This document shows positions 12,518-26,651 of a stretch of DNA of 26,651 bases, in pieces. Below the pieces are notes generated by a model, which did no database searches, was not told the DNA's origin, and saw only the letters and a list, made by a program, of their open reading frames with translations. Every line of letters begins with the position of its first letter. Position 1 is the stretch's first letter. This stretch comes from a virus. Its lineage: Duplodnaviria > Heunggongvirae > Uroviricota > Caudoviricetes. The stretch lies in IMG/VR virus record IMGVR_UViG_2609459847_000005, one strand, 5' to 3'. The translations under genes were made by a program, and so were the position numbers.

Positions 12518-13216
12518 TTATTTGTTTCTTCTTTGTTCACGCCTTGTCTTGGCTTCGATAAGGCGTTGAGGTTCAGTGTAAAGCCGTTCTAAAAAAAGAT
12601 AGGTAAAATCTTCAAGATCCTCAGCAGCAGCTTTATCCAAAATACCTTCATGCGCTCCATCATTTCCGTCATCTTTAACGCATTCAGCTAGTTCCCTTAA
12701 AGCTTCAGGCAGTAGATGATTATCAAATAACCACTCCATTCTTAACCCTAGGCTTCTCCTTATTTTTTGCGCAGGCCCTTGCTCCCCATCAGGAAGAAGT
12801 CCTTTTGTGGCATAATCAAGGCAAAGCCTAAACATGGTTGCTGCTGCATTATAACAACCTATAGCCAAACATTTCGCCCCTTCCTCATATGCACTATTGA
12901 TATGCTCAGGTAAGAACTCTGGTGGCTCCTCTACTGCTAAGTCTGCCGGTGATATAGGCCTAACAACCTCTGCAACTTCCTTTAAGCCGAATATTCCACT
13001 TTCCCAATTATAGCCATCTAAAGTTTTATTTTTCGTTAAAGGTCTGCAAAGAAACATTGTCGTTTTATGACACTCTCGGCAAACACAATAGACCTCGTAC
13101 TCGTATGTTTTACCCCCGCCCAATGCATTGTAAACCCTAGTGCAATTCAGCCCATTAACATCAAACGCTATTTTTTGTGATCCACATCGTGGACAGTCAT
13201 CCACTAACATAACCAT
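12518..13216 (-). CDS. Hypothetical protein (232 aa): N-terminal zinc ribbon plus C-terminal alpha-helical domain (HEPN/DUF4145-like?)
   Basis: Strong GGGAGGAG Shine-Dalgarno before ATG 13216. N-terminus has CPRCGS...C..CVCRECH (Cys4-type ribbon); C-terminal region has GNDGAH (an NxxxH motif) in a predicted helical domain. AT-rich; sits between the Q 3' end and the putative cos site. Confidence 0.75.
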   Translation of the reverse strand: MVMLVDDCPRCGSQKIAFDVNGLNCTRVYNALGGGKTYEYEVYCVCRECHKTTMFLCRPLTKNKTLDGYNWESGIFGLKEVAEVVRPISPADLAVEEPPEFLPEHINSAYEEGAKCLAIGCYNAAATMFRLCLDYATKGLLPDGEQGPAQKIRRSLGLRMEWLFDNHLLPEALRELAECVKDDGNDGAHEGILDKAAAEDLEDFTYLFLERLYTEPQRLIEAKTRREQRRNK

Positions 13217-13317
13217 GTCAATTACTCCTCCCTATGAAAAAAATGAGTTGAAAAATTGAATATTCACGACTTAAAAAGCTAGCCTATTTAACACCATAAT
13301 TTCATTAATTCAACCAT

Positions 13318-13345
13318 GAGCGCGCGCTCGTATCCCCGCCACGCC
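13318..13345. other. Candidate cos site with adjacent 12-bp perfect palindrome
   Basis: Reverse complement of 13327..13345 is GGCGTGGCGGGGATACGAG; the first 13 nt match the 186-type cohesive end as I recall it (GGCGTGGCGGGGAAAGCAT). Palindrome GAGCGCGCGCTC at 13318..13329. Location between Q and the old/tin-equivalent region fits P2-family genome organisation. Confidence 0.5.
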
Positions 13346-13390
13346 TGCCCGCTTTATGTAGTGGTTTTCATGCGCCTGCATGACATAAGC

Positions 13391-13414
13391 AAAAGCCCGC
13401 CATTCCTAGCGGGC
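13391..13414 (-). terminator. Rho-independent terminator candidate for the minus-strand cargo operon
   Basis: Minus strand reads GCCCGC-taggaatg-GCGGGC followed by TTTT; about 90 nt downstream of the 203-aa gene stop. Confidence 0.55.
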
Positions 13415-13505
13415 CTCAGCTAAAACGATCCTCAAACGATCATGCGGATTCATGCGGCATAGACATGCACAATCGCCAAAGCGGGCATCGAGACTTTTTG
13501 GAAAA

Positions 13506-14117
13506 CTACGTAACCACAGTTAATGTGTGCATCCTGTCTCGAATTGCATCACACGTCTCATCAAAAAGCTTGGTGATGGTTGTACGGTTCAACTCTGCCT
13601 CTTTCCAATAATTTTGCCAGTCAAATTCTGGATCGCCATGCTGAAACGATATTGACTCTGAAAGGCATTCCTTCCGGAAACGGTCCAAGATTATATAAAC
13701 CTCTGGTGAGATGAACGGTTTGTTAGACTCAACACTTGTAACAAAAGTATTAAATGCATCGAAAAAAACTTTCAACCTTCTAAATTTTCTCTCTTCAAAT
13801 GGTTCGTTGGGGTCAAAATGATCCAGCGCAGGCCTCAGCTTAAGCACGCTTTCTCTGGTTTCAAACATCGAATTCCAAATGAGACTATATGCTGATAACT
13901 CCTTATCAAAATACGCTTTCGTTACATAAACAGAATTGTCTAACTTAGCCTTTATTCTTTCATTAGTTGCACTCAGTTGTGATTGAAATTCAGCAATATC
14001 TTTGTTTAGCCGCGACTTATATCTTTCTAAATAAACTTTCCCGATCCAAACAAATATGCCAGATGCAACAAAAGACACCCCACCCAACGAAGCCAGAATT
14101 TTAAAGACTAAATCCAT
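13506..14117 (-). CDS. Hypothetical membrane-anchored protein (203 aa)
   Basis: ATG 14117 preceded by AGGTGGGGG; N-terminal TM helix (ILASLGGVSFVASGIFVWIGKVY) followed by a charged, helix-rich soluble domain; AT-rich; no recognisable domain. Confidence 0.75.
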   Translation of the reverse strand: MDLVFKILASLGGVSFVASGIFVWIGKVYLERYKSRLNKDIAEFQSQLSATNERIKAKLDNSVYVTKAYFDKELSAYSLIWNSMFETRESVLKLRPALDHFDPNEPFEERKFRRLKVFFDAFNTFVTSVESNKPFISPEVYIILDRFRKECLSESISFQHGDPEFDWQNYWKEAELNRTTITKLFDETCDAIRDRMHTLTVVT

Positions 14118-14165
14118 TGCGCCCCCACCTGCAAAAATAGTATTCCATTATAAGCTAATACATTT

Positions 14166-14426
14166 TTAATCAAACAGGGAATAATTCGCGTCAACCTCAT
14201 CACTTCTCTGCTCTACCCTGGTGACTTCCATCAAAAACTCCAGGCCGTCATATAGCGAAACGGGGAATTCCAGCTCAAGCCAGAAGCAGTCTTCATAGGT
14301 GCGGCCCAACCAAAAACCTCCGCCACACTCCTTTGGGCGTTGAAAGAAGACCCAGCCGCCAGGGGTAAACCGTTCCAGCACCTGGCCCCGATAAATAATC
14401 TGGTGATTACTGTCTTTTTTACCCAT
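14166..14426 (-). CDS. Hypothetical small protein (86 aa)
   Basis: ORF 14166..14477 starts at TTG; internal ATG at 14426 (MGKKDSNHQIIYRGQ...) preferred. Lies between the DinI-like gene and the TM protein gene. Coding status moderately supported. Confidence 0.5.
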   Translation of the reverse strand: MGKKDSNHQIIYRGQVLERFTPGGWVFFQRPKECGGGFWLGRTYEDCFWLELEFPVSLYDGLEFLMEVTRVEQRSDEVDANYSLFD

Positions 14427-14499
14427 GGCTAACGCCTCGCTACTCTCGTTGTTCAACCTTGCTGACGTCAGAATCAAGTTCTTACATCAGGAACGTTCC

Positions 14500-14733
14500 T
14501 TAGTGCAGCCAGCTGTCGTCTTCCCAAACCTGCTGCATAATTTCCATCACCCGCTTTTTGTCTTCATCAAGCTTTAAGCCACTCAGCTCAACGCCGTTTG
14601 CCGACCCTTTACGGATGCGGATAGCTGTCTTGGGATAGATGGGTTGCAGGTTGCGGTAAAGCTCGGACTCCAGAGCGTCCAGGGTAGACTGGCTAATCTT
14701 CTGCTCTTTATCGATCATTATTTCAATGCGCAT
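14500..14733 (-). CDS. DinI-family protein (Tum-like antirepressor C-terminal module)
   Basis: Start moved to internal ATG 14733 with GAGGTG Shine-Dalgarno; MRIEIMIDKEQKISQSTLDALESELYRNLQPIYPKTAIRIRKGSANGVELSGLKLDEDKKRVMEIMQQVWEDDSW resembles E. coli DinI (MRIEVTIAK...ETWESADDWF). It is downstream of LexA boxes, as for the 186 tum gene. Confidence 0.8.
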   Translation of the reverse strand: MRIEIMIDKEQKISQSTLDALESELYRNLQPIYPKTAIRIRKGSANGVELSGLKLDEDKKRVMEIMQQVWEDDSWLH

Positions 14734-14743
14734 AAAAGTCACC

Positions 14744-14932
14744 TCAGCTGATGACATCCATTGAGCGGTTGTATTCGTGGGTTCTGATTTTTGCCATGAG
14801 TTCATCTGTCAGTTCAGAAACCCACTGCAGGGCCAGCCCCTTCTCTTCATCACTACACTCACTAGCCGCTACAAGCTTAAGAAAAAAATCAATGCGCTGG
14901 AGCTTCAAAGACTCCAAAAAATAGTCCTGCAT
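14744..14932 (-). CDS. Small protein (62 aa) upstream of the DinI-like gene; possible N-terminal part of a split tum-like module
   Basis: ATG 14932 with AGGAGGAA Shine-Dalgarno; first gene downstream of the LexA-box promoter; 11-nt gap to the DinI-like gene. Confidence 0.65.
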   Translation of the reverse strand: MQDYFLESLKLQRIDFFLKLVAASECSDEEKGLALQWVSELTDELMAKIRTHEYNRSMDVIS

Positions 14933-14959
14933 CTTTCCTCCTATGACACCAAAGCAACA

Positions 14960-14990
14960 CTGTATACATAACCACTGTTTATATTTACAG
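14960..14990 (-). promoter_or_regulatory. LexA operators (SOS boxes) overlapping the promoter of the tum-like operon
   Basis: CTGTTTATATTTACAG at 14975..14990 is a perfect CTGT-N8-ACAG box; the adjacent CTGTATACATAACCAC (14960..14975) is a weaker second box; both are just upstream of the 62-aa gene start. Confidence 0.75.
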
Positions 14991-15084
14991 TATATAATAA
15001 TCTTACTGATGTAAAACGTTTTTTTACGCTCATCAGCCTGATATGCCTGGTATTATTAAGAGCACGAATTGTTAACCTGCGTAA

Positions 15085-17499
15085 TTAATACAGGTTCCGC
15101 CATTTATCATCCTCCTGCAGACGCTGGTTCCGATAGAAGATACGCAGGCCTGCTCCTGACGGAATACTGCCGCCGCGAAGGAGTAAATCGACCTCTTTCT
15201 CGCTGCCATCAAATCCTCTGGACTTCAGTTCATAGACGAGCTGCTGTCGCTGATGATCTGTAATTCGCTGTTTGTAGTCTTTACGCCGTTTCGGTTTAAC
15301 CAGGCGTAACCTTGCTGCCAGTTCCCGGCGCTCTTTTTTGCTCATACTGTGCAGGTAATCGTGCAATTCCTTGTCATCCATGCGGGTGATTTCCGTTCTG
15401 GTATCCCCATCAGCTGATTTGTCTTTCCCTTGTTGGTTCAAATTTTCAGCAAGGGGACAGTTATTGCCACGAGTCCAAGGGGCGCAAGCGCCCTGGTCGG
15501 CTGCCGCCTCCTGAACGTCAACGGCTTTACGAACCATTTTCCACTTCACTGCATGAGTGCAGATCTTGCCCTCTGCAATGGGTGACCAGATGCCATAAAT
15601 ACGAATGCCGTGATCGCCATAGGCGGTCGGCTCTTCGTTGATTTCATAAGCGGTTCTGATGAGGTGATATTTACGGGGAACCAGTACGCCGCCCTGCTTC
15701 ATGATGTAGGTGGCAAAACAACCAGCATCAGCAGCAGCCAGAATGGCATCAAGACGCGGGTTATCCAGTACCGGCGCACCTACTTTTTTGTCACCCTGTT
15801 GCCTTGCCGCCTGACCAGCCAGCAAGCGAAGTTCACGGTAAGCCTGACGCCCCGGAATACCAAAGAAGCGGAATTGCTGAACACGATGCAGAGACGCCCA
15901 GGCATTCACGTATTCAGCGTTATCACGCAGAGATTTACCCGTTTCCTTGCTGATCTCGCCAGCCAGACCACGACCGTCAATGTTCTTACTGATATATTTC
16001 GCGATGTAGCTTGTCGGCGTTCCTTTGCGCGGGTTAATCAACTCAGACTTAAAGCGCGGCCCAGTGTTATTGCCCAGCTCCTCGCGGTCTTCACGGGTGG
16101 CAAACTTACGCAGTAATGCAGTGATGGCACGGCGGTCTTTTTTGCGCATGAAACACAACAGGTGCCAGTGAACGGGGCCGTCATGATGCGGCTCAGCCCC
16201 CCGCACGCCATACCAGCGCAACCCGGCTTTGTGCATCGCCTTACGAAATGCAGCAAACATGCCGACCAGATAATCGCTGCTTTGTCTTACCGTCGCGTTT
16301 GTCCAGGTCGGGTTTGGTCTGCCGTTATTTAGCGTGGAATGGAAACGCGACGGACAGGTGATAGTGTAGAAAACGGCGCAGTCACCGCGCATTTCCGCGA
16401 TAAGCTCCAGACCTTTAACACAGGCCATCATCTCATTGCGGCGATGCGCAGGGTTGCTGCTGCTGGCGTTTACCACATCCTCCATGTCCAGCGTGTCGCC
16501 GTCTTCGTTCACCAGTTCATGAGAACGGAAAAACTCCAGCGACTTACGGCGCTGCTCACGTTTATGCATCACGGCTTCATAGCTGACATAAGGAGATGCT
16601 TTTTTGCTGACCAGGCAAACAGCGCGCAACTGCTCTTCCCGCCATTCGCAACGCATCTTCCATAATTTCCGATACCACCAGTCGCCGCACAACATACGCG
16701 CCAGCGAACCCGGAATGAGTTCATAGGGCACGGGTTTACGGCGGTTTCTTTTCCGACGGAGTTGCTCAAACGCAGGTGGGATGACATCCAGACGCAGGGT
16801 TTCCGCCGCCACCTTTTCCCATGTCTTGCGGATTTCTTCTGGCTTAACGTCATCGGTGGCATACAAATCGCCACAAGCTGCATCAAGGCACATGCTCATA
16901 TGCGCAGCTACCAGGGTGGACAGGCGTTTCACATGATCCTGACTCATTTCAGGCAGGATCAGCAGGCCGTCCAGCCCTTCATGGCTTGCCATAAAGCGAA
17001 AAGAAGTGGATAGCTGACTCTCGCGTACATGCTCCAGTCGTTCCAGACATGGCTTAATCGTCTCACGCAAATAGCGGGAATAAGCCTTTGGCCTGCCCAG
17101 GCTGCTGAAGTATTCAATACGTTGCATCAGCGGCTTGCTGATATGGGAAGGCTGGGCGTTGACGTCCGCCAGAATGACCATATCCGGATTAAAACGCTGC
17201 TGCTCATGCGCCAGCTTTGCCCGGCTAATGAGCTTATCCTGCTCCATTTCGCGCTGGACAGGATCACGGGATTCATTAAAGAAATAACGCTCCCAGACCT
17301 GATCACTCAGTGCCTCGCGGCGCAGTTGTTCCTGCTCGTTATCGGCAGCGTACAGAGTGATCAGGTTTGAAAGCGCAGAAACCGGCGCAACTTCTGCCGG
17401 GTCCAGATAAGGGTTAATAGCCTTTTTCGGGCTGTCCCATGAGAATGCTGCGGCGGCCTCGTTAAAGCCGCTGCAGTTGTTCATATCAGCATGGCTCAT
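15085..17499 (-). CDS. A: Replication initiation endonuclease (P2 gpA-like rolling-circle Rep)
   Basis: 804-aa ORF; HUH-type motif (PVHWHLLCF) and tyrosine-containing [12 protein letters not shown]; ATG overlaps the dam stop; P2 A is about 761 aa. Confidence 0.9.
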
Positions 17500-18353
17500 G
17501 CACGCACTCCGTACACGGCAGAACTATCCACGCCACGCGAAGGATCAAATCCCACCCAGCAGCGCGCCCCAGAAACAGCGATGATTTCTGTTGCAGATTT
17601 ACTCTCACCAGCTGCTACGCCGATGCTGCGTTTTGCCTTGATGTAGTGGTGAGTAAAATTGCGATACAGCGAACGGATCAGGGATGTGTCACTGTTAGAA
17701 ACAATGACCGGATGTCCTTCTGATGACCGATGTTCAAGAACGGATGCCAGGTGATACTGGTCATCTTCAGTGAAGCCGTCAGTGTGATAACCGGAAAACG
17801 TGCCGTCATACGGCGGATCGCAATACACCACATCCCCCGCCTTCAACATCGCCAGCGTTTCATCAAAGCTGGCGCAGATAAACGTTGCCCGCTGGGCTTT
17901 CTCTGCAAATGCGCGAATTTCTTTTTCAGGGAAATACGGATTTTTATAATTACCGTAGGGAATGTTGAAATACCCGCTCTTGTTATAGCGACATAACCCA
18001 CGGTAACCATGACGATTGAGATACAGAAAATATACCGCTTTCATGAAATCAGTAATTTCAGTGGAGTAATTAAACTCCTGCCTTATGTTGTAATAAGCCA
18101 CCTCCCTGTTTGCTTCCTCAAATAAAGCTCTGGCACGAGATATAAATGCCTCACAATCAGCAGCAACCTTTTTATAGAGGTTGATTAAATCAGGATTAAT
18201 ATCCGCAACAAGATAGCTGGGGTAATCCGTCTCCATCATCACAGCACAGGAACCCGCGAAAGGTTCAACCAGTCGCGGGCCAGCAGGAAGGTGTTTTTTC
18301 AGTTCGGACATAATGGCGGTTTTATTTCCCGCCCATTTCAGGATGGTGCTCAT
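17496..18353 (-). CDS. dam: DNA adenine methyltransferase (Dam-like, N6-MTase)
   Basis: Start moved to internal ATG 18353 ([38 protein letters not shown]...), resembling the E. coli Dam N-terminus (...FLKWAGGK...VEPFVGAGSV); DPPY catalytic motif present ([10 protein letters not shown]). Confidence 0.85.
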
Positions 18354-18577
18354 ACAGCACCTCCGTTGTAATGTTTGCCTTTCAGCTCTGCAATTTCCTG
18401 GCAGGTAATGCAAAGCTGCACACCCGGAATGGCACGGCGGCGTGCTGGCGGAATTGGCGCTTCACACTCAATGCAAAGCACGCGAGACACGCCCGGTGTT
18501 TTGGCACGGGCAGCACGGATATGGCGCTGGCGTTCTTCTTCAACGCGCTGCTGTACGAGATCCATTGCATCAGCCAT
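18350..18577 (-). CDS. TraR/DksA-family C4 zinc-finger protein
   Basis: 75-aa ORF with CIECEAPIP...CITCQ (CxxC-N17-CxxC); AGGAGA Shine-Dalgarno; common in P2/186 early operons. Confidence 0.75.
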   Translation of the reverse strand: MADAMDLVQQRVEEERQRHIRAARAKTPGVSRVLCIECEAPIPPARRRAIPGVQLCITCQEIAELKGKHYNGGAV

Positions 18578-18810
18578 TAGTGGATCTCCTGCGCTTCGTT
18601 CTGGATTGCTTCAGCAGTCACACGCAGCAGTTCTGCCGCTTCCACGTGGTTTAGCTGACGGGATGAGATATGACACGCCAGGCTATCAAGGCGAGCGGCC
18701 ATTGCTTCAGCCCTTGCCCGGCGTTCTTCCAGACGAGCCTCTGTCAGTAAAATATTAAGCCCTGCATCATCCGGTCCGGTTTTAGTCGTGAGGATTTCAA
18801 TATTACGCAT
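18577..18810 (-). CDS. Hypothetical early-operon protein (77 aa)
   Basis: ORF 18577..18816; ATG at 18810 preceded by GGAGA; position within the early (replication) operon. Confidence 0.55.
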   Translation of the reverse strand: MRNIEILTTKTGPDDAGLNILLTEARLEERRARAEAMAARLDSLACHISSRQLNHVEAAELLRVTAEAIQNEAQEIH

Positions 18811-18877
18811 AATCAATTCTCCTGAATTTAGATAAAGGGATGCTCGGCGGGTTTACGCCATTAATTTCATTAGTTGG

Positions 18878-19219
18878 TTAATTCGGCATGGTTAGCCGTC
18901 TGGGAAATAAGCTCACCACTGCACGAAAATGATTCATTGCTTTAATCAACTCCCGCTTTTCGTCAGTGGTCAGCTCATTGATGCTGATGCTATGACGTTC
19001 AGCCGGAATTTTTGCCATAAAGAATATGGCTGCCAGTGCTCGTTTATTTTGTTCGTTATTGATATCCCGTGGATCACGCATATCTTTAATAAACCGCTCA
19101 AGCTCTGACTCAATATTCAGGCCAAAAACTTTCGCCCTTAATTCCGCTATGTGATTAAGTCCATTCAGGCGTTCACCGGGGCTTAATGGAACAGTCGCCG
19201 CAGCGCCTTCAATAGCCAT
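18878..19219 (-). CDS. Hypothetical early-operon protein (113 aa)
   Basis: ATG 19219 with GGGGGAA Shine-Dalgarno; same strand and operon as cII/A. Confidence 0.6.
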   Translation of the reverse strand: MAIEGAAATVPLSPGERLNGLNHIAELRAKVFGLNIESELERFIKDMRDPRDINNEQNKRALAAIFFMAKIPAERHSISINELTTDEKRELIKAMNHFRAVVSLFPRRLTMPN

Positions 19220-19383
19220 TTGTTCCCCCGTTTTTTCGTAGATAGTTCTGCCAGCAATTCATCTTGTGAACGGCACGGATGCCAGCGTTTACCATCCTCA
19301 CCCATGATCCAGCCGTGACCGTAGTGCATTGCCGGACTTTGTTTTACCAGCAGCGATGCAAATGATGGTTCTTTCGTCAGCAT
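19183..19383 (-). CDS. Hypothetical small early protein (66 aa)
   Basis: ORF 19183..19413 begins with GTG; internal ATG 19383 preceded by GAGGTG; immediately downstream of cII (position of 186 fil). Confidence 0.5.
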   Translation of the reverse strand: MLTKEPSFASLLVKQSPAMHYGHGWIMGEDGKRWHPCRSQDELLAELSTKKRGNKWLLKALRRLFH

Positions 19384-19390
19384 AAGCACC

Positions 19391-19900
19391 TCACAGCAAA
19401 CCGAATGAAGCACCGAGACCGGTTACAGTATCAACTGCACTTGCCATCGCAGGATTAACCTGTAAACGGGCCTGCAATGAAACAGCAGCTAACGCCATCA
19501 GTCGTGTAACAGAGTTAATGCTGCTGATAGCATCACGACGACCTGCACTGGTTTTTACATCGCCAGATACCGCACCTGCAGCAACACGCCCGATCTCTGC
19601 GGTTGCACTCATGACGTAATGTGGCAGTTTCTCTTTTGCCACCTCATTAATCGGTACACATGGCAGGCAGTGAATCTGTGCCAGAAAACCGTCTACCAGC
19701 GTTGAATCTTCCGTCAGATCGGTAAGTAGCCAGATATCTGGCGCATTGAGCTGATGCGGTTGATCTGGGTTGAGTTTGTTTCGCAGAGTCTGGACATTCA
19801 TTCCTGAACGTTCTGCCAGCTTCGCCATATTGTGACGAAGTGCAAAAGCTCTACAGGCTTCATCAAAATGCGGGTGTTTGGAAATCTTATAATCAAACAT
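19391..19900 (-). CDS. cII: CII-like transcriptional activator (186 CII family)
   Basis: 169-aa ORF, identical in length to 186 CII; second gene of the lytic operon after the apl-like gene; HTH-like N-terminal region (MAKLAERSGMNVQTLRNKL). Confidence 0.75.
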   Translation of the reverse strand: MFDYKISKHPHFDEACRAFALRHNMAKLAERSGMNVQTLRNKLNPDQPHQLNAPDIWLLTDLTEDSTLVDGFLAQIHCLPCVPINEVAKEKLPHYVMSATAEIGRVAAGAVSGDVKTSAGRRDAISSINSVTRLMALAAVSLQARLQVNPAMASAVDTVTGLGASFGLL

Positions 19901-19932
19901 GCTACCCCCTTAGAAAGTTCTCATAATTGAAC

Positions 19933-20175
19933 TTACTTACCAACAATGACGCGGAAGTTGGAATGACCGAGGGATTCACGGACCTGATCGGTTTTGTACA
20001 TTAAATAACGCAGGCTTACGCGGCCTTTGTTTTTTTCTTTCTTGACCATGTATTTAGCAAGCTGACCATGATGAATTTTTTGATACACAGAGCCGCGGGA
20101 GATACCTTCCCATTCCGCGAACTCTGCAGGCGTAGCCATCTCTTTTGGTACACGAATTGAAATATCAGTGCTCAT
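19933..20175 (-). CDS. apl: Apl/Cox-like excisionase-regulator (small HTH protein)
   Basis: 80-aa ORF, first gene of the lytic operon, divergent from cI; GGGAGA Shine-Dalgarno; HTH-like segment EFAEWEGISRGSVYQKIHHGQL. Confidence 0.7.
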   Translation of the reverse strand: MSTDISIRVPKEMATPAEFAEWEGISRGSVYQKIHHGQLAKYMVKKEKNKGRVSLRYLMYKTDQVRESLGHSNFRVIVGK

Positions 20176-20294: not shown

Positions 20295-20927
20295 ATGATA
20301 CAGGTAAAGGTTGGAGAGAATACAGGGGGAAGAGAGGCTATCCATAGACTAATGGCAGCCTATGATTTCAAGTCCAGACAGCAACTTTGCGATCACTTAG
20401 GCGCATCAAAAAGCACCATGGCAAACAGATACTTAAGAGATAGTTTTCCTGCAGAGTGGGTGATTCAGTGCGCCTTGGAAACAGGAGTTTCTTTACTGTG
20501 GCTAACCACCGGACAGGGGGAGCCAGGTCCAAACATTGAACCTAAAAAAAATATCAATTCCGTGAACTCCAGCAAGGTTGTACCTCTTTCTGAACTAGTA
20601 TCTCCTGAAATTGACAAGGCGACTCTCAACGGTGGTTTATTGGTCGATGCTGGAAAAGCAATCATTGATAGCAGCATACTCCCCTCAGACTCAAGCAACC
20701 TACTGCTGGTGACTACTTCTGGTGATTCTTATTTAATAGATCGCAACCAAACACCACCAGTAAATGGTATGTGGTTAGTCGATATTGACGGGATAAAAAG
20801 CATTGTTAAATTGACTCGACTTCCGGGAAACAAATTAGTAGTGCATCAGGATGATTCATCGTTTGAGTGTGGCCTAGATGACATTGAGGTAGTAGGCCGC
20901 GCACTGAAAATCATTAAGAGCCTTTGA
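20295..20927 (+). CDS. cI: CI-like immunity repressor (186 CI family)
   Basis: 210-aa ORF; N-terminal HTH region (ANRYLRDSFPAEWVIQCALETGVSLLWLTTGQG) resembles the 186 CI N-terminal domain as recalled; AGGA Shine-Dalgarno; directly precedes int. Confidence 0.8.
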   Translation: MIQVKVGENTGGREAIHRLMAAYDFKSRQQLCDHLGASKSTMANRYLRDSFPAEWVIQCALETGVSLLWLTTGQGEPGPNIEPKKNINSVNSSKVVPLSELVSPEIDKATLNGGLLVDAGKAIIDSSILPSDSSNLLLVTTSGDSYLIDRNQTPPVNGMWLVDIDGIKSIVKLTRLPGNKLVVHQDDSSFECGLDDIEVVGRALKIIKSL

Positions 20928-22325: not shown

Positions 22326-24059
22326 CTACTCAAGGAGATATTCTAACTCATCTTTTATCGGGATAATTTGCTCATAAAGTCGGTGATATGACTTCCCAAT
22401 TGCGCCTCTAAATTGTATTAACTTTGGTGGCTTACTACCTATATTAATAATATGGTCTTGAGCTATACCTGGGTAGGGATCAATAAATACAATTTCAGAT
22501 ATACCTAACTGATAAGCTTTTTTCGCACACAACTCACAGGGACTGGCAGTTGTATACAACTTCCCCCCCAGAACGCCAATACCACCATATTTTGCAAGTT
22601 GTAAAAATGCGTTTTCCTCAGCATGTAATGCACGTGTATGAACTTGATTACCTTTTTTCTCTTTATCAAGATCATTATGTATATCTTTAAAACAATAAGA
22701 TAAGTTCCTGCCTCTATAAATATCACCAGTTTTATCTATCGCCCTAAAATTTAAGAGTTTCTCATTAGCTTTAATTCTGAAAGAACTATTATTTCTCTCA
22801 TAATGACTGTACGTTTTTTCATCAAAATCGTTCATTAGGCCATCTAGAGATCTCATAGAGCAAGGAATCTGACCGTTGGCAACATCATTCCAACCAACTG
22901 ATTTTATTGAATTATCACCATCAGTTACTACAGCTCCCACCTGTCTAGATATACAGCCAGAGTTTAATTTTACCGTATACGCAACTTGCATAACCCTTTC
23001 CATTGCAGTAGGTGTTATCAGACCAGGATGCTTCATCAGTGCGATGTACCACGCTAATTGTGCTTTTAAAATATTGTCATTATCAAATTCATTTTTTGGG
23101 TTAAAAATGTGTATATCTGATAGTTCAATACATTTAGTTACATTTGGATTGGTGAGATGTTTGTAAGAGTTATCACCTTTACCTGACTCTACAGAATCTA
23201 TTTCCTCTATCTGCTTTTCTGAAAACTTATGTAGTTTCCGCAAATAGTTTGTTCGATGTTCATCTGGGGCATTTATTGACATTAAATGAAATGCAGAATA
23301 TCTATCCTTAAAAAATTTTGCCTCATATGGATTTCTAATAGCATCTATGACAATTAATGCGTTATCTCTTTTGCTTTTTCTTATTAATTTAATAACCCTA
23401 TTAATAGTTTCCGGCAAATGAAAAACAGATTTAGGCATAAACTCTTTATCTTCAAAATCGACTTCAATACGCCCACGACGTCTAATTGACTTACCTGCTA
23501 ACTGATAGGCTGAAACATATAAATTTGAGTTTATCTCATTTAGTTCAGCTTTGAATTCTTTAGTAAATTTTCTAACTAACTTCAAAATTGATATAAATTT
23601 ATTAATCGTTTTTTCATCAAACTTCAATTCACTATTATGATCAAGCAAATTCTCAATTACATTTTTAAATCTTGTCAAAATGAGATTATCTGAGAATACA
23701 CCAAAAGTTAATACAATATCTAAATGCTCTTTACTGATAAATTTATTAGATGATAGAATGAATTCAGAAGCTTCCTCAACTGTTAACATCAGAAGATACG
23801 CTGAGATTAGGTCACTCACCTTAATTGAGTAAAAATTTTCCCAGTGATTTTCTGCGAATTTTTTAACTATATTATAACGATGGACATCCAATCCCTTGTA
23901 AAACCCCTGTAATTTACTTACATCAGGGAAGACTGTTTTTTCGTTTTCAAGAATATTAGCTGTTGTTGTGCAACCAGAACCAGTTCGACCTGTCAAACCG
24001 ACTAAAATAAACTGCCCATTTTCAAGGAAAAGCTCACTAACGAATTTTTTTTCTTTCAT
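22326..24059 (-). CDS. P-loop NTPase / dCMP-dCTP deaminase fusion (AvcD/DCD-like nucleotide-depletion defence protein)
   Basis: 577 aa from ATG 24059 (track ORF starts at GTG 24062). N-terminal P-loop region with non-canonical Walker A (GLTGRTGSGCTT, no Lys) and Walker-B-like LIVID. C-terminal cytidine/dCMP deaminase signatures (RQVGAVV...GWN; HAEENA; PCELC zinc-binding motifs). Strongly AT-rich relative to the phage backbone. Confidence 0.8.
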   Translation of the reverse strand: MKEKKFVSELFLENGQFILVGLTGRTGSGCTTTANILENEKTVFPDVSKLQGFYKGLDVHRYNIVKKFAENHWENFYSIKVSDLISAYLLMLTVEEASEFILSSNKFISKEHLDIVLTFGVFSDNLILTRFKNVIENLLDHNSELKFDEKTINKFISILKLVRKFTKEFKAELNEINSNLYVSAYQLAGKSIRRRGRIEVDFEDKEFMPKSVFHLPETINRVIKLIRKSKRDNALIVIDAIRNPYEAKFFKDRYSAFHLMSINAPDEHRTNYLRKLHKFSEKQIEEIDSVESGKGDNSYKHLTNPNVTKCIELSDIHIFNPKNEFDNDNILKAQLAWYIALMKHPGLITPTAMERVMQVAYTVKLNSGCISRQVGAVVTDGDNSIKSVGWNDVANGQIPCSMRSLDGLMNDFDEKTYSHYERNNSSFRIKANEKLLNFRAIDKTGDIYRGRNLSYCFKDIHNDLDKEKKGNQVHTRALHAEENAFLQLAKYGGIGVLGGKLYTTASPCELCAKKAYQLGISEIVFIDPYPGIAQDHIINIGSKPPKLIQFRGAIGKSYHRLYEQIIPIKDELEYLLE

Positions 24060-24254
24060 CACGTCCCACTTATGAATGCAAGAACAATTAGCATATTAAT
24101 TATAATTTATTAACTAATTTTATTCTAGATGCTTGATGTAATGGCGGCACTTTGGCGGCAGAGCATTAAAAACGCGTAAGACGAGCAAATACAAAATAAC
24201 ACTAACACATTGTTTTCAAACATAATCTACTGTTTTTACTATAATAAAAATGGT

Positions 24255-24299: not shown

Positions 24300-24334
24300 A
24301 TTTTTGATATATTGAAGTTCAGTGAAGTCTATCA

Positions 24335-24367
24335 AGCCCGCATGGAACCAGCCTTGCGGGCTTTTTT
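24335..24367 (+). terminator. Rho-independent terminator downstream of the ssrA 3' fragment
   Basis: AGCCCGCA-tggaaccagcct-TGCGGGCT followed by TTTTTT. Confidence 0.6.
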
Positions 24368-24465
24368 ACGTCTATAGTAGTCTACCGAGAATTGCTAGAA
24401 TCTACTCGTTATGGCACCCTTTTTGGGACCCAACACAAAGGGTCCAAAACATGAGGGTCCCAAAC

Positions 24466-25695
24466 ATGGCAAAAATCGCTAAGAAGCTCACTGACACTGA
24501 AATCAAAAGCACCAAACCTGCCGAGAAAGAGGTTAACCTTTTTGACGGCGATGGTTTGCTCCTGCGAATCGCCCCCTTAGCGAAGGGAGGAAAGAAAAAT
24601 TGGTATTTCAGATATGCAGTGCCTGTGACCAAAAAGCGAACTAAGGTGAGCTTAGGAACCTATCCTCACCTTACACTTGCGAAGGCACGAGCTTTACGTG
24701 ATGAGTACTTGTCGTTGCTTGCAAATGGTATAGACCCACAAGTTCATAACACCCACAAAGCCAATGCCCTTAAGGATGCAACGGAACATACATTTCAAGC
24801 AGTAGCCAAGAAGTGGCTTGATGAGAAAGTCAAAACGTCAGGCATCTCCCAGGATCATGCTAACGACATCTGGCGAAGCCTAGAGAGAAATATCTTTCCA
24901 ACGTTGGGTGATACCCCCATTAAGGAGATTCGCCCTAAAATGCTTAAACAGCATTTAGACCCCATAGAAAAACGAGGTGTCCTTGAAACACTTCGCCGCG
25001 TCATATCCCGCCTGAATGAAATTTTCCGCTATGCAGCAACAGAAGAACTCATAGAATTCAATCCGGCTGACAACCTGGGGCAACGGTTCAGCAAGCCAAA
25101 AAAACAGAATATGCCAGCATTACCCCCTTCCGAACTCCCCCGCTTCCTGGTTGCTCTAAACAATGCTTCTATCCGTTTAGAAACAAGGCTACTGATTGAG
25201 TGGCAACTTCTCACATGGGTTCGCCCTGGTGAAGCTGTTCGCACAAGATGGTCAGATATTGATATAGAAACCAGCATGTGGAACATCCCGGCGGAGTTTA
25301 TGAAAATGAAGAAGCCTCACAAAGTTCCACTGAGCAAAGAATCTTTGCGAGTCTTGGATTCAATGAAAGCCATCAGCGGGCATAGAGAGTGGGTTTTTCC
25401 CAGTATCAAAGCTCCACTCAATCACATGCATGAACAAACAGCTAATGCGGCTATAATCCGTATGGGCTTCGGAGGTGAGCTTGTAGCTCATGGTATGCGA
25501 TCAATCGCTAGAACGGCGGCTGAGGAGTGTGGCAAGTTTAGAACTGATGTCTTAGAAGCCGCCCTTGCCCACTCGAAAAAAGATGAAATAATTGCAGCCT
25601 ACAATCGTGCAGAGTATCTCACAGAACGTGTGGTTCTCATGCAATGGTGGAGTGACTATGTTTCGTCTCAAAAATACAAAGTTATTGCCGCATAA
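24466..25695 (+). CDS. intA: Tyrosine integrase, CP4-57 IntA / P4-family (ssrA-targeting type)
   Basis: ORF 24322..25695; start moved to internal ATG 24466 (MAKIAKKLTDTEIKSTKPAEKEVNLFDGDGLLLRI...) because the upstream part spans the terminator hairpin; N-terminal pattern typical of P4-family integrases (DUF4102-like); adjacency to the ssrA 3' end as in CP4-57. Confidence 0.8.
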   Translation: MAKIAKKLTDTEIKSTKPAEKEVNLFDGDGLLLRIAPLAKGGKKNWYFRYAVPVTKKRTKVSLGTYPHLTLAKARALRDEYLSLLANGIDPQVHNTHKANALKDATEHTFQAVAKKWLDEKVKTSGISQDHANDIWRSLERNIFPTLGDTPIKEIRPKMLKQHLDPIEKRGVLETLRRVISRLNEIFRYAATEELIEFNPADNLGQRFSKPKKQNMPALPPSELPRFLVALNNASIRLETRLLIEWQLLTWVRPGEAVRTRWSDIDIETSMWNIPAEFMKMKKPHKVPLSKESLRVLDSMKAISGHREWVFPSIKAPLNHMHEQTANAAIIRMGFGGELVAHGMRSIARTAAEECGKFRTDVLEAALAHSKKDEIIAAYNRAEYLTERVVLMQWWSDYVSSQKYKVIAA

Positions 25696-26069: not shown

Positions 26070-26651
26070 GGTAATGACTCCAACTTATTGATAGTGTTTT
26101 ATGTTCAGATAATGCCCGATGACTTTGTCATGCAGCTCCACCGATTTTGAGAACGACAGCGACTTCCGTCCCAGCCGTGCCAGGTGCTGCCTCAGATTCA
26201 GGTTATGCCGCTCAATTCGCTGAGTGTAACGCTTGCTGATTACGTGCAGCTTTCCCTTCAGGCGGGATTCATACAGCGGCCAGCCATCCGTCATCCATAT
26301 CACCACGTCAAAGGGTGACAGCAGGCTCATAAGACGCCCCAGCGTCGCCATAGTGCGTTCACCGAATACGTGCGCAACAACCGTCTTCCGGAGCCTGTCA
26401 TACGCGTAAAACAGCCAGCGCTGGCGCGATTTAGCCCCGACGTATCCCCACTGTTCGTCCATTTCCGCGCAGACGATGACGTCACTGCCCGGCTGTATGC
26501 GCGAGGTTACCGACTGCGGCCTGAGTTTTTTAAATGGCGGAAAATCGTGTTGAGGCCAACGCCCATAATGCGGGCGGTTGCCCGGCATCCAACGCCATTC
26601 ATGGCCATATCAATGATTTTCTGGTGCGTACCGGGTTGAGAAGCGGTGTAA
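26070..26651 (-). mobile_element. IS1 insertion sequence (partial; continues beyond window end)
   Basis: Sequence from 26070 (GGTAATGACTCCAACTTATTGATAGTGTTTTATGTTCAGATAATGCCCGATGAC...) matches the IS1 right inverted repeat and body as recalled; contains insB. Confidence 0.9.
26085..26588 (-). CDS. insB: IS1 transposase InsB (C-terminal part of InsAB')
   Basis: 167-aa [53 protein letters not shown]... recognised as IS1 InsB. Confidence 0.9.

Follow-up and report, generated by a model that had tools for sequence, protein, structure and literature searches.

In prophage Cartapus, the module in the interval from replication gene A to cos is a real, conserved, and ordinary instance of the two-gene form, tumA-tumB, of the 186 "tum" SOS operon, an arrangement that has already been described. 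A two-gene SOS operon of this kind, belonging to a P2-like prophage of the 186 type, is probably the best explanation for the sequence and for the published transcription data considered below. Two minor points are new: the operator is a double LexA site of the colicin type, and the CI proteins that accompany a single type of TumA fall into at least 17 immunity types. The window (the whole 26,651-nucleotide stretch of DNA that was analyzed) represents the Cartapus prophage of Escherichia coli LF82, and the region matches both phage Cartapus and LF82 at 100% identity.

Cartapus is a Fels-2-like, 186-type relative of P2. Its CI is of the 186 type, with PF07022 and PF16452 and without an S24 peptidase (autocleavage) domain. 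Members of the CII and Fil families and Apl are also present, giving Cartapus the same type of switch as 186, composed of CI, Apl, CII, and Fil. The tum module is on the minus strand at positions 14500 to 14990, as in the preliminary description, with gene A (Pfam PF05840) upstream and cos at 13319-13377. It thus occupies the location of a 186-type tum, the gene A-cos interval of a phage whose 186-type CI lacks the autocleavage domain. Of complete E. coli genomes, 21% carry the tumA-tumB module. The preliminary description had recognized a tum-like module consisting of a 62-aa open reading frame (ORF) and, 11 nt downstream, a DinI-family ORF, and this account was borne out: the tumA stop codon TGA is followed by a 10-nt gap, and the tumB ATG begins at the 11th base after the stop, in a different frame. 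The two genes are as follows.

14744..14932, minus strand: tumA (ORF62; Cartapus gp44, LF82_791), 62 aa, a separately encoded homologue of the antirepressor (N-terminal) half of 186 Tum.
14500..14733, minus strand: tumB (Cartapus gp45, LF82_406), 77 aa, a DinI-family protein.

TumA appears, at the profile level, to be homologous to 186 Tum in the N-terminal half, which lies outside the DinI-like part. Profile methods were needed because pairwise BLASTP gave no alignment of ORF62 with either 186 Tum or PsP3 TumA. ORF62 matched phrog_698 at 3.6e-38, and the N-terminal 70 aa of 186 Tum matched the same family at 5.9e-6; phrog_8554 and phrog_1993 were likewise matched by both proteins. Comparison of ORF62 with the N-terminal part of 186 Tum by hhalign gave a collinear alignment (columns 3-48 versus 3-49) with a probability of 84.9% and an E value of 6.4e-6, and a tblastn search with 186 Tum aligned collinearly over tumA plus tumB of MLG42. 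Searches of Pfam, NCBIfam, PADLOC, and PDB sequences returned no match to ORF62. The protein is acidic, and AlphaFold2 predicted a two-helix hairpin (pLDDT, 89). A Shine-Dalgarno sequence, AGGAGG, precedes tumA at 14937-14942. The "hypothetical protein" that sits beside a "DinI family protein" in about one-fifth of complete E. coli genomes is a TumA-type antirepressor homologue; this type is without a Pfam or NCBIfam model, and our finding mainly corrects annotation.

TumB is readily classified. It matches Pfam PF06183 (DinI) with 86.1 bits against a cutoff of 24.2 (2e-24) and gives an end-to-end alignment with E. coli DinI (PDB 1GHH/7YWA; E value, 2e-9; residues 1-75 versus 1-77), and the C-terminal acidic helix of DinI, ending in VWEDDSW, is conserved. 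It is 43% identical to residues 71-145 of 186 Tum. Its score against the model for chromosomal E. coli DinI (NCBIfam NF007893) was 53.7 bits, below the cutoff of 111; TumB is a phage paralogue and not the host DinI. Membership in the DinI family suggests that TumB may bind RecA filaments and modulate their coprotease activity. The tumB Shine-Dalgarno sequence, GAGGTG (14740-14745), overlaps the tumA stop codon.

Upstream of tumA, the preliminary description had noted a perfect LexA box and a weaker adjacent one over the promoter. Both are present, with 16-nt cores at 14975-14990 and 14960-14975, within the following elements.

15010..15015, minus strand: putative -35 hexamer TTTACA of the tum promoter (equivalent of 186 p95), assigned by position and conservation.
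14987..14992, minus strand: putative -10 hexamer TACTGT, 17 nt after the -35 hexamer and forming the left arm of LexA box 1.
14973..14992, minus strand: LexA box 1, 20-mer TACTGTAAATATAAACAGTG, with a perfect CTGT-N8-ACAG core and 3 mismatches to the 20-nt consensus.
14958..14977, minus strand: LexA box 2, 20-mer CAGTGGTTATGTATACAGTG, whose left arm (GTGG) is weak, with 6 mismatches to the consensus.

The core of box 1, CTGTTTATATTTACAG, is one of only two CTGT-N8-ACAG matches in the window, where 0.37 was expected; the other, at 22941-22956, falls within an unrelated gene beyond the prophage and is taken to be a chance occurrence. The weaker core of box 2, GTGGTTATGTATACAG, has one base in common with that of box 1, and the two together form a tandem operator in which two SOS boxes overlap by one base pair and the second has a degenerate left arm. 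This composite, CTGT-N8-ACAGTGG-N8-ACAG, occurs once in the window against an expectation of 0.00 (100 shuffles). Of 80 related IMG/VR loci, 71 have it at the corresponding position, as do Fels-2 and MLG42. Across 56 distinct upstream sequences the operator is kept while the flanks diverge, TTTAC is invariant, and the spacing between the -35 and -10 hexamers is fixed; the TACTGT is also retained in relatives. A promoter with TTTACA, 17 nt, and TACTGT is proposed by its likeness to the annotated p95 of 186, in which the -10 hexamer is likewise TACTGT and constitutes the first 6 nt of the LexA site. Thus, at the sequence level, a LexA site lies over the predicted promoter, as for 186 tum. A consensus promoter scanner called no promoter at the tum operator, because TACTGT fits TATAAT at only three of six positions. 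A MAFFT DNA alignment with 186 had set the LexA box of that phage against box 2; we rejected this pairing after reading the annotated p95 hexamers, since box 1 is the positional equivalent when distance is measured from the promoter.

The double box is of a kind known from colicin genes. ColE1-type operators likewise consist of two LexA 16-mers overlapping by one base, CTGT-N8-(A/C)CAGTGG-N8-ACAG, and on a ColRNAI plasmid the same tandem design occurs 43 nt upstream of a gene for a colicin-like bacteriocin, with about 39 nt nearly identical to the tum operator. The colicin operators drive a bacteriocin, whereas the Cartapus operator drives a prophage antirepressor operon. Colicin double operators bind two LexA dimers and are very tightly repressed (Kamensek 2010). 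By analogy, the tum operator may bind two dimers cooperatively, with tight repression and delayed induction as the expected outcome. The low basal tumA signal described below is compatible with tight repression. Single LexA boxes are found in 186 and PsP3, and the question arises whether the double operator sets a higher SOS threshold.

Downstream of tumB are two cargo genes and the probable end of the operon.

14166..14426, minus strand: ORF86 (gp46, LF82_790), first cargo gene, function unknown, matching phrog_2100.
13506..14117, minus strand: ORF203 (gp47, LF82_789), cargo gene encoding a membrane and coiled-coil protein, with its own expression in the lysogen.
13387..13420, minus strand: intrinsic-terminator-like hairpin (GCCCGC, loop, GCGGGC, then TTTTGCTT) directly before cos.

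ORF86 had no match in Pfam, NCBIfam, or PADLOC, and phrog_2100 is itself a family of unknown function. ORF203 has been classed as a moron (Misson 2023). No terminator was found between tumB and ORF86 that would be a counterpart of t95a of 186. The strong terminator after ORF203 is in a place equivalent to that of t95b of 186, and this hairpin is likely the end of the operon.

Expression of the module was assessed in published RNA sequencing (RNA-seq) data for LF82 (Misson 2023, S1 and S4 Tables), given in log2 units with a floor of 2.32. The level of tumA RNA was 4.1 to 4.7 after 6 h in DMEM, 9.8 to 10.0 at 1 h in macrophages, and 10.9 to 11.0 at 6 h. In macrophages tumB mRNA rose from 3.7 to 9.2, and ORF86 RNA rose from 2.7 to 7.6 and only where tumAB rose (Misson 2023). 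The three genes were up approximately 30- to 90-fold (tumA approximately 90-fold) in a polar gradient, while gene A directly upstream was at background, 2.4 to 2.9 (Misson 2023). The preliminary description had suggested that the transcript might continue into the cargo genes and place them under SOS control. Read-through is supported at least as far as ORF86, which is co-induced; ORF203 has expression of its own, reaching 8.6 in DMEM, where tumA was at 4.4, and 10.5 in macrophages, and both ORF203 and the DUF4145 gene were also up in DMEM without tumA induction (Misson 2023). The host genes umuD, sulA, and dinI rose in the same macrophage samples as tumAB (Misson 2023), and the tumA profile follows that of umuD. 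This correlation with SOS genes supports SOS-like induction, in line with the control suggested in the preliminary description, and the evidence that it provides for LexA control is correlative.

Induction of the phage itself gave a different picture. In macrophages the apl-like gene, cII, and gene A were at or near background although tumA mRNA was as abundant as that of host dinI (Misson 2023). In published LF82 data Cartapus virion DNA was not raised with ciprofloxacin (3.3e5 versus 2.1e5 genomes/mL), and the authors scored Cartapus "SOS induced: -". Lysis driven by the co-resident prophage Gally at 50 to 80 min confounds induction assays in LF82. Such early lysis, combined with a stoichiometric action of Tum, could be the cause of the absent rise. 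Antirepressor activity of Cartapus TumA is suggested by homology, and lytic derepression was not seen in the published LF82 data. Why Cartapus stays uninduced despite strong tumA transcription is a question raised by these data. The locus has relevance to the quinolone and macrophage responses of P2-like prophages in pathogens (such as adherent-invasive E. coli LF82, Salmonella, and Klebsiella).

Taking together the observed gene order, homologies, conservation, operator sequence, and stress-linked co-induction, we infer the following course of events. In the uninduced cell, two LexA dimers would occupy the tandem colicin-type operator, covering the -10 hexamer and the transcription start. Upon DNA damage, LexA cleavage would allow transcription of the tum operon. 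Translation of tumB may be coupled to that of tumA through the Shine-Dalgarno sequence lying over the tumA stop codon, and the transcript would run at falling abundance into ORF86 and probably on to the terminator after ORF203. TumA, by homology, would bind and sequester the noncleavable 186-type CI, so that the early lytic promoter would be derepressed, and TumB, also by homology, would modulate RecA filaments. CI binding, blocking of operator binding by CI, and prophage induction are known for 186 Tum, and antirepressor activity has been reported for PsP3 TumA (Lemire 2011).

Another explanation for the two ORFs could be that they are debris of a single tum gene recently broken by a frameshift or stop, with one or both halves nonfunctional. 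The DinI ORF is indeed out of frame with ORF62, its frame is open upstream to 14805, and 186 has both parts in one protein, a single 146-aa ORF for which Cartapus has no equal. However, both genes were intact (62-aa and 77-aa ORFs with spacers of 8 to 12 nt) in all 83 related loci, where tumB stands in each of the three possible frames relative to tumA (58, 19, and 6 loci), and both cistrons are under strong purifying selection (dN/dS of 0.041 for tumA and 0.029 for tumB). Each has a separate Shine-Dalgarno sequence. No fused TumA-DinI protein with the Cartapus type of TumA was present among 482 clusters at 90% identity or 86 representatives at 50% identity, all of which were short and without a C-terminal DinI extension, and in ESSI-2 and ENT90 a LexA box and a tumA-like gene stand without a DinI gene. 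The fused gene of 186 is the minority form and contains an internal Shine-Dalgarno sequence and GTG start exactly at the start of tumB, which points to fusion in the 186 lineage and not to fission in Cartapus. The comparison with 186 tum proposed in the preliminary description thus revealed two ORFs homologous to the halves of Tum, intact, conserved, and free of any lesion; the broken-gene reading is hardly credible and has been effectively refuted by the intact, selected ORFs. It is also very unlikely that the macrophage response is due to a regulator other than LexA, responding to oxidative, nitrosative, or acid stress, and that the LexA-like boxes are incidental. Many regulons are altered in the macrophage environment, tum of the P2-like prophage BTP5 reportedly peaks under nitric oxide shock, and the rise of ORF203 and the DUF4145 gene in DMEM was independent of tumA. 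Nitric oxide and peroxide are, however, themselves SOS inducers. The tandem operator persists amid diverging flanks, overlaps the -10 hexamer exactly as in the experimentally defined p95, and differs little in sequence from colicin operators, to which two LexA dimers are known to bind. Expression follows umuD, which is among the most tightly LexA-repressed genes.

The data on phage induction bear on a further alternative, in which the operon is SOS induced but has wholly or largely lost the ability to induce the prophage that carries it, serving instead mainly as a stress accessory operon (DinI-RecA plus cargo) or as a source of a trans-acting, broad-spectrum antirepressor for other 186-like prophages. 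The approximately 90-fold rise of tumA mRNA, with the apl-like gene, cII, and gene A still repressed, and the absence of a rise in virion DNA would fit such an operon. BTP5 behaves alike: tum is its top transcript, and no phage is produced even with mitomycin C. In addition, Fels-2/Elveevirus-type prophages carry a nearly invariant TumA allele behind the double LexA operator, and the CI immunity types combined with it number at least 17: TumA of one type (84 to 100% identical) was found with CI proteins in at least 17 clusters, with <80% identity between clusters, and one such CI is 60% identical to that of 186. Across 69 loci and 17 CI clusters there was no covariation, and the idea of an immunity-specific TumA that covaries with CI was rejected. 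On the other side, tumA is under strong purifying selection, and the LexA box and tumA are always linked to phages with a 186-type CI, for which a function in induction is the simplest explanation. The PsP3 tumA record reads "similar to 5' end 186 tum; UV induction of prophage," Fels-2, with its 98% identical TumA, is under antirepressor regulation according to literature cited by Lemire (2011), and the LF82 assays are confounded by Gally. We consider an operon of this kind unlikely and favor an SOS operon that would induce its own prophage. As a speculative extension to which we assign a somewhat low probability, TumA could be a generalist "master-key" antirepressor that recognizes a feature conserved in all 186-type CI proteins and cross-induces co-resident prophages, or the operon could be uncoupled from induction in some hosts and act as an SOS accessory (DinI plus cargo) that helps the lysogen in genotoxic niches.

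Comparison with known systems shows how far the two-cistron arrangement extends. The preliminary description had presented the module as tum divided into two cistrons; separate ORFs in different frames are indeed present, but the division is neither new nor a disruption; PsP3 and Fels-2 are known to have tumA and tumB arranged in this way. In both of these phages tum is split in two, with antirepressor activity in the upstream gene of PsP3 (Lemire 2011). PsP3 (Eganvirus) resembles Cartapus in having a two-cistron SOS operon after gene A and a TumB that is 92% identical, annotated as "similar to dinI and 3' end of 186 tum." It differs in its TumA, which is only ∼22% identical, and in its split, which consists of an in-frame TAG followed by 3 nt, compared to a frame change in Cartapus. 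In 186, the LexA-repressed p95 operon (tum, t95a, orf97, and t95b) also follows gene A, and tum also combines an antirepressor N-terminal part with a DinI-like part and has a cargo gene on the same transcript. The differences are that 186 Tum is one fused protein with nested internal starts whereas Cartapus has two proteins, that the N-terminal domain is only ∼22% identical to Cartapus TumA, and that t95a, a partial terminator, follows tum. More distantly, the LexA-controlled dinI-gfoA/gftA operons of Gifsy phages also pair a DinI homologue with a small antirepressor directed against a noncleavable repressor, and these antirepressors are able to act in trans on other prophages (Lemire 2011). 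Their order is reversed, with dinI first, Gifsy phages are lambdoid, and we take their antirepressors and repressors to belong to families different from those of Cartapus.

The closest counterpart is Fels-2 of Salmonella LT2 (Felsduovirus), in which STM2728 and STM2726.1 occupy the same place after gene A as Cartapus tumAB. The Fels-2 tandem LexA operator is the same, with box 1 identical, STM2728 is 98.4% identical to ORF62, and the DinI gene begins 10 nt further on in the same shifted frame. Fels-2 CI, in contrast, is only 57.6% identical to Cartapus CI, and Fels-2 has a 243-aa cargo gene where Cartapus has ORF86 and ORF203. The tumB genes of the two phages have a dS of ∼1.0 at synonymous sites, indicating that the region is mosaic.

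Between 14400 and 15100 the window matches Escherichia phage Cartapus (NC_070909; Peduoviridae, Elveevirus) at 100% identity, and the part tested against the chromosome of E. coli LF82, 14480-15030, is also 100% identical (LF82 coordinate = window coordinate + 2,746,026). Phage sense is the minus strand of the window, on which the order runs from the immunity region through Dam and gene A to the tumA-tumB region and cos.

Layout of the prophage

20295-20927, plus strand: CI, in the immunity region
minus strand: apl/cox-like gene, CII, and Fil, in the immunity region after CI
15085-17499: replication gene A, after Dam and upstream of tumA in phage sense
13319-13377: cos, after the tumA-tumB region in phage sense

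CI contains both 186-type CI domains (PF07022 and PF16452) and no autocleavage domain, and CII and Fil are members of 186 families; the lysis-lysogeny switch is therefore 186-type rather than P2-type. A switch of this kind requires an antirepressor if SOS is to induce it.

The preliminary description placed a perfect LexA box and a weaker neighbor upstream of a 62-amino-acid open reading frame (ORF), and both are present. Box 1, CTGT-N8-ACAG, lies at 14975-14990; box 2, GTGGTTATGTATACAG at 14960-14975, has a degenerate left arm and shares one base with box 1. The CTGT-N8-ACAG pattern occurs twice in the window versus 0.37 expected, and the composite double-box pattern occurs once versus 0.00 expected. 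The other single match (22941-22956) sits within a deaminase gene outside the prophage and, given 0.37 expected per window, is probably due to chance. A consensus promoter scan of the region upstream of tumA found no promoter. In the annotated p95, the LexA-repressed SOS promoter of 186, the −10 element TACTGT is the first six bases of the LexA site, and elements of the same geometry can be predicted in the window.

15010-15015, minus strand: predicted −35, TTTACA
14987-14992, minus strand: predicted −10, TACTGT, after a 17-nt spacer

With p95-like geometry, box 1 would cover the −10 element and box 2 the start region. Across 56 distinct upstream sequences of relatives the surrounding DNA diverges, but the two boxes persist, as do TTTAC and the spacing. 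Of 80 related IMG/VR loci, 71 carry the exact composite operator, as a single copy in the corresponding position, and so do Fels-2 and MLG42. In contrast to these two boxes, 186, PsP3, 613R3, ESSI-2, and ENT90 each have a single LexA box. By sequence, the tandem operator (14958-14992) is of the colicin type, nearly matching the double SOS box that precedes colicin-like bacteriocin genes on ColE1-type plasmids: a 44-nt operator query matched 1206 plasmid records, and on a ColRNAI plasmid (L086 1500-1538) a colicin-like bacteriocin gene has the near-identical TATACTGTATATAAAACCAGTGGTTATATGTACAGTATT 43 nt upstream of it. In colicins, where Kamensek 2010 describes it, such a double operator holds two LexA dimers and represses very tightly.

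Both genes behind this operator had been described as tum-like, a claim borne out by alignment for tumB and by profiles for tumA. The 62-amino-acid ORF, tumA, is present at 14744-14932 on the minus strand, with AGGAGG upstream. BLASTP found no match between its product and either 186 Tum or PsP3 TumA, and searches of Pfam, NCBIfam, and PDB returned no relative. The product is, however, a member of phrog_698 (3.6e-38), a family likewise matched by residues 1-70 of 186 Tum (5.9e-6), and phrog_8554 and phrog_1993 are matched by both proteins. Profile-profile comparison of its family with the 186, ENT90, and PsP3 N-terminal sequences gave a probability of 84.9% (E 6.4e-6; collinear residues 3-48), and in MLG42, where TumA shares 84% identity with that of the window, tblastn aligned 186 Tum across both genes. 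Despite the negative BLASTP, these profile relationships show TumA to be a homolog, at profile level, of the N-terminal part of 186 Tum. Fels-2 STM2728 is 98.4% identical to it, and AlphaFold2 predicts a two-helix hairpin (pLDDT 89).

The DinI-family ORF reported close behind it, tumB, occupies 14500-14733 on the minus strand; it starts 10 nt past the tumA stop codon in a different frame, and its Shine-Dalgarno sequence, GAGGTG, overlaps that stop codon. Its product scores 86 bits against Pfam DinI (cut-off 24), gives a full-length alignment with E. coli DinI (PDB 1GHH/7YWA), is 92% identical to PsP3 TumB, and shares 43% identity with residues 71-145 of 186 Tum (E 2e-25). Against the NCBIfam equivalog model of host DinI it scores below the cut-off and is therefore a phage paralog.

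Two adjacent genes where 186 has one could reflect a lesion that split a single tum gene. This explanation is ruled out by the intact ORFs, variable frames, and strong purifying selection: both ORFs are intact in 83/83 loci, their spacing is 8 to 12 nt with all three relative frames represented (58, 19, and 6 loci), and the median dN/dS is 0.041 for tumA and 0.029 for tumB. Window-type TumA is always short, with a C-terminal DinI extension in none of 482 clusters at 90% identity or 86 representatives at 50% identity, and in a phage collection fused tum is restricted to close relatives of 186, about 28 of them. ESSI-2 and ENT90 differ in having a LexA box and a tumA-like gene without a DinI gene. 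The simplest reading would be that the LexA box and tumA form the core of the module, that tumB is a frequent companion, and that 186 tum is a fusion. Within 186 tum (L002 4270-4295), an AAGGAGG Shine-Dalgarno sequence and GTG start fall exactly on the site homologous to the start codon of tumB, and the annotation gives the product from this GTG as a truncated Tum that is made separately; the retained internal start is consistent with fusion of tumA and tumB. The tumA-like gene of ESSI-2 (L087, about 560-800) lacks annotation, and that of ENT90 (L089 559-798) is annotated with a start upstream of the LexA box, so that the box falls within the called ORF. The true starts in both likely follow the GGGAGG Shine-Dalgarno sequence directly past the LexA box.

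Expression was taken from LF82 RNA-seq (GSE154648) as reanalyzed by Misson et al. 2023 (PMC9928086); we read the table legend as identifying the B1/B6 samples as DMEM cultures.

Expression in LF82, log2(fpkm+5), floor 2.32 (PMC9928086)

tumA: DMEM 6 h, 4.1-4.7; macrophage 1 h, 9.8-10.0; macrophage 6 h, 10.9-11.0
tumB: DMEM 6 h, 3.7; macrophage 1 h, 7.9; macrophage 6 h, 9.2
ORF86 (14166-14426, minus strand): DMEM 6 h, 2.7; macrophage 1 h, 5.0; macrophage 6 h, 7.6
gene A (immediately upstream): DMEM 6 h, 2.8; macrophage 1 h, 2.5; macrophage 6 h, 2.8-2.9
host umuD: DMEM 6 h, 4.8; macrophage 1 h, 8.2; macrophage 6 h, 8.9

In macrophages tumA and tumB (14500-14932) rose about 45- to 90-fold, host sulA and dinI were up in the same samples as umuD, and gene A stayed at 2.4-2.9 under every condition (PMC9928086). 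These data support a stress-induced promoter that lies between gene A and tumA and acts independently, with an attenuated transcript that reaches ORF86. Read-through into ORF86 agrees with the terminator search, which found none 3' of tumB. ORF203 (13506-14117, minus strand) and the DUF4145 gene beyond cos already stood at 8.6 and 7.6 in DMEM without tumA induction and rose only about 4-fold further (PMC9928086); they therefore have their own promoters. The proposal that the cargo genes are under SOS control is thus supported for ORF86, which rises with tumB with no terminator between them, and only in part for ORF203, which is expressed on its own. Phage 186 offers a precedent for cargo on an SOS operon, since orf97 is carried on the p95 transcript. 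A strong hairpin, absent from the output of the terminator scanner, separates ORF203 from cos.

13387-13420, minus strand: strong terminator-like hairpin

The stretch from tumB to the portal gene (12518-14426), with cos inside it, is a variable cargo hotspot, with at least 15 gene families directly after tumB among 62 of the related loci. In the window it holds ORF86, ORF203 (an expressed moron, membrane and coiled-coil), and a protein that combines a zinc ribbon with DUF4145 and that PADLOC matches weakly to PD-T7-4 (1.2e-6).

In the RNA-seq in which tumA rose, the lytic operon of Cartapus (15085-20175; together with tumA and tumB, LF82 2760526-2766201) showed no derepression in macrophages: the apl-like gene went from 4.4-5.1 at 1 h down to 3.1-3.3 at 6 h, cII was at most 3.9, and gene A was at background (PMC9928086). 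Virion DNA of Cartapus was no higher with ciprofloxacin than without antibiotic (means of 2.1e5 versus 3.3e5 genomes/mL), and Misson et al. scored the phage "SOS induced: -" (PMC9928086). This lack of induction could be explained by the co-resident prophage Gally, which lyses the cells 50 to 80 min after ciprofloxacin, or by stoichiometry, as 186 Tum sequesters CI stoichiometrically and must outpace CI synthesis; a similar picture, with tum highly transcribed and no phage, has been reported for prophage BTP5. For Cartapus the antirepressor step is therefore inferred from homology, by which TumA would be the putative antirepressor.

Across 80 related loci, window-type TumA is 84 to 100% identical, and the CI proteins paired with it share 35 to 100% identity overall and as little as 25% in the C-terminal domain, the N-terminal domain being better conserved. 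The paired CI proteins form 17 clusters less than 80% identical to each other, and 186 CI is 60% identical to one of them. A near-invariant TumA with diverse CI means that the two do not covary. Either all 186-type CI proteins share a feature that TumA recognizes, or some TumA-CI pairs are mismatched.

What the window carries is the tumA-tumB SOS operon already known from Fels-2/PsP3-type phages; its prophage had been sequenced before, in a strain that is well studied. According to Lemire et al. 2011, tum is divided in two in Fels-2 and PsP3, and in PsP3 the antirepressor activity belongs to the upstream gene. The PsP3 GenBank record describes tumA as "similar to 5' end 186 tum; UV induction of prophage" and tumB as "similar to dinI and 3' end of 186 tum," and the whole module occurs in 1126 of 5426 complete E. 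coli genomes, annotated "hypothetical protein" and "DinI family protein." The observation in the preliminary description is confirmed and its interpretation supported; the remaining points of interest are the tandem LexA operator, a TumA that appears to be a generalist, and, in LF82, the mismatch between transcription of tumA and induction of the prophage. Beyond the integrase, just outside the prophage, lies a 578-amino-acid dCTP-deaminase-type antiphage defense gene (22326-24062, minus strand; PADLOC dCTPase, 1.3e-145), near a second P4-type integrase (24322-25695, plus strand) and an IS1-like transposase (26085-26588, minus strand), which together suggest an adjacent defense island.
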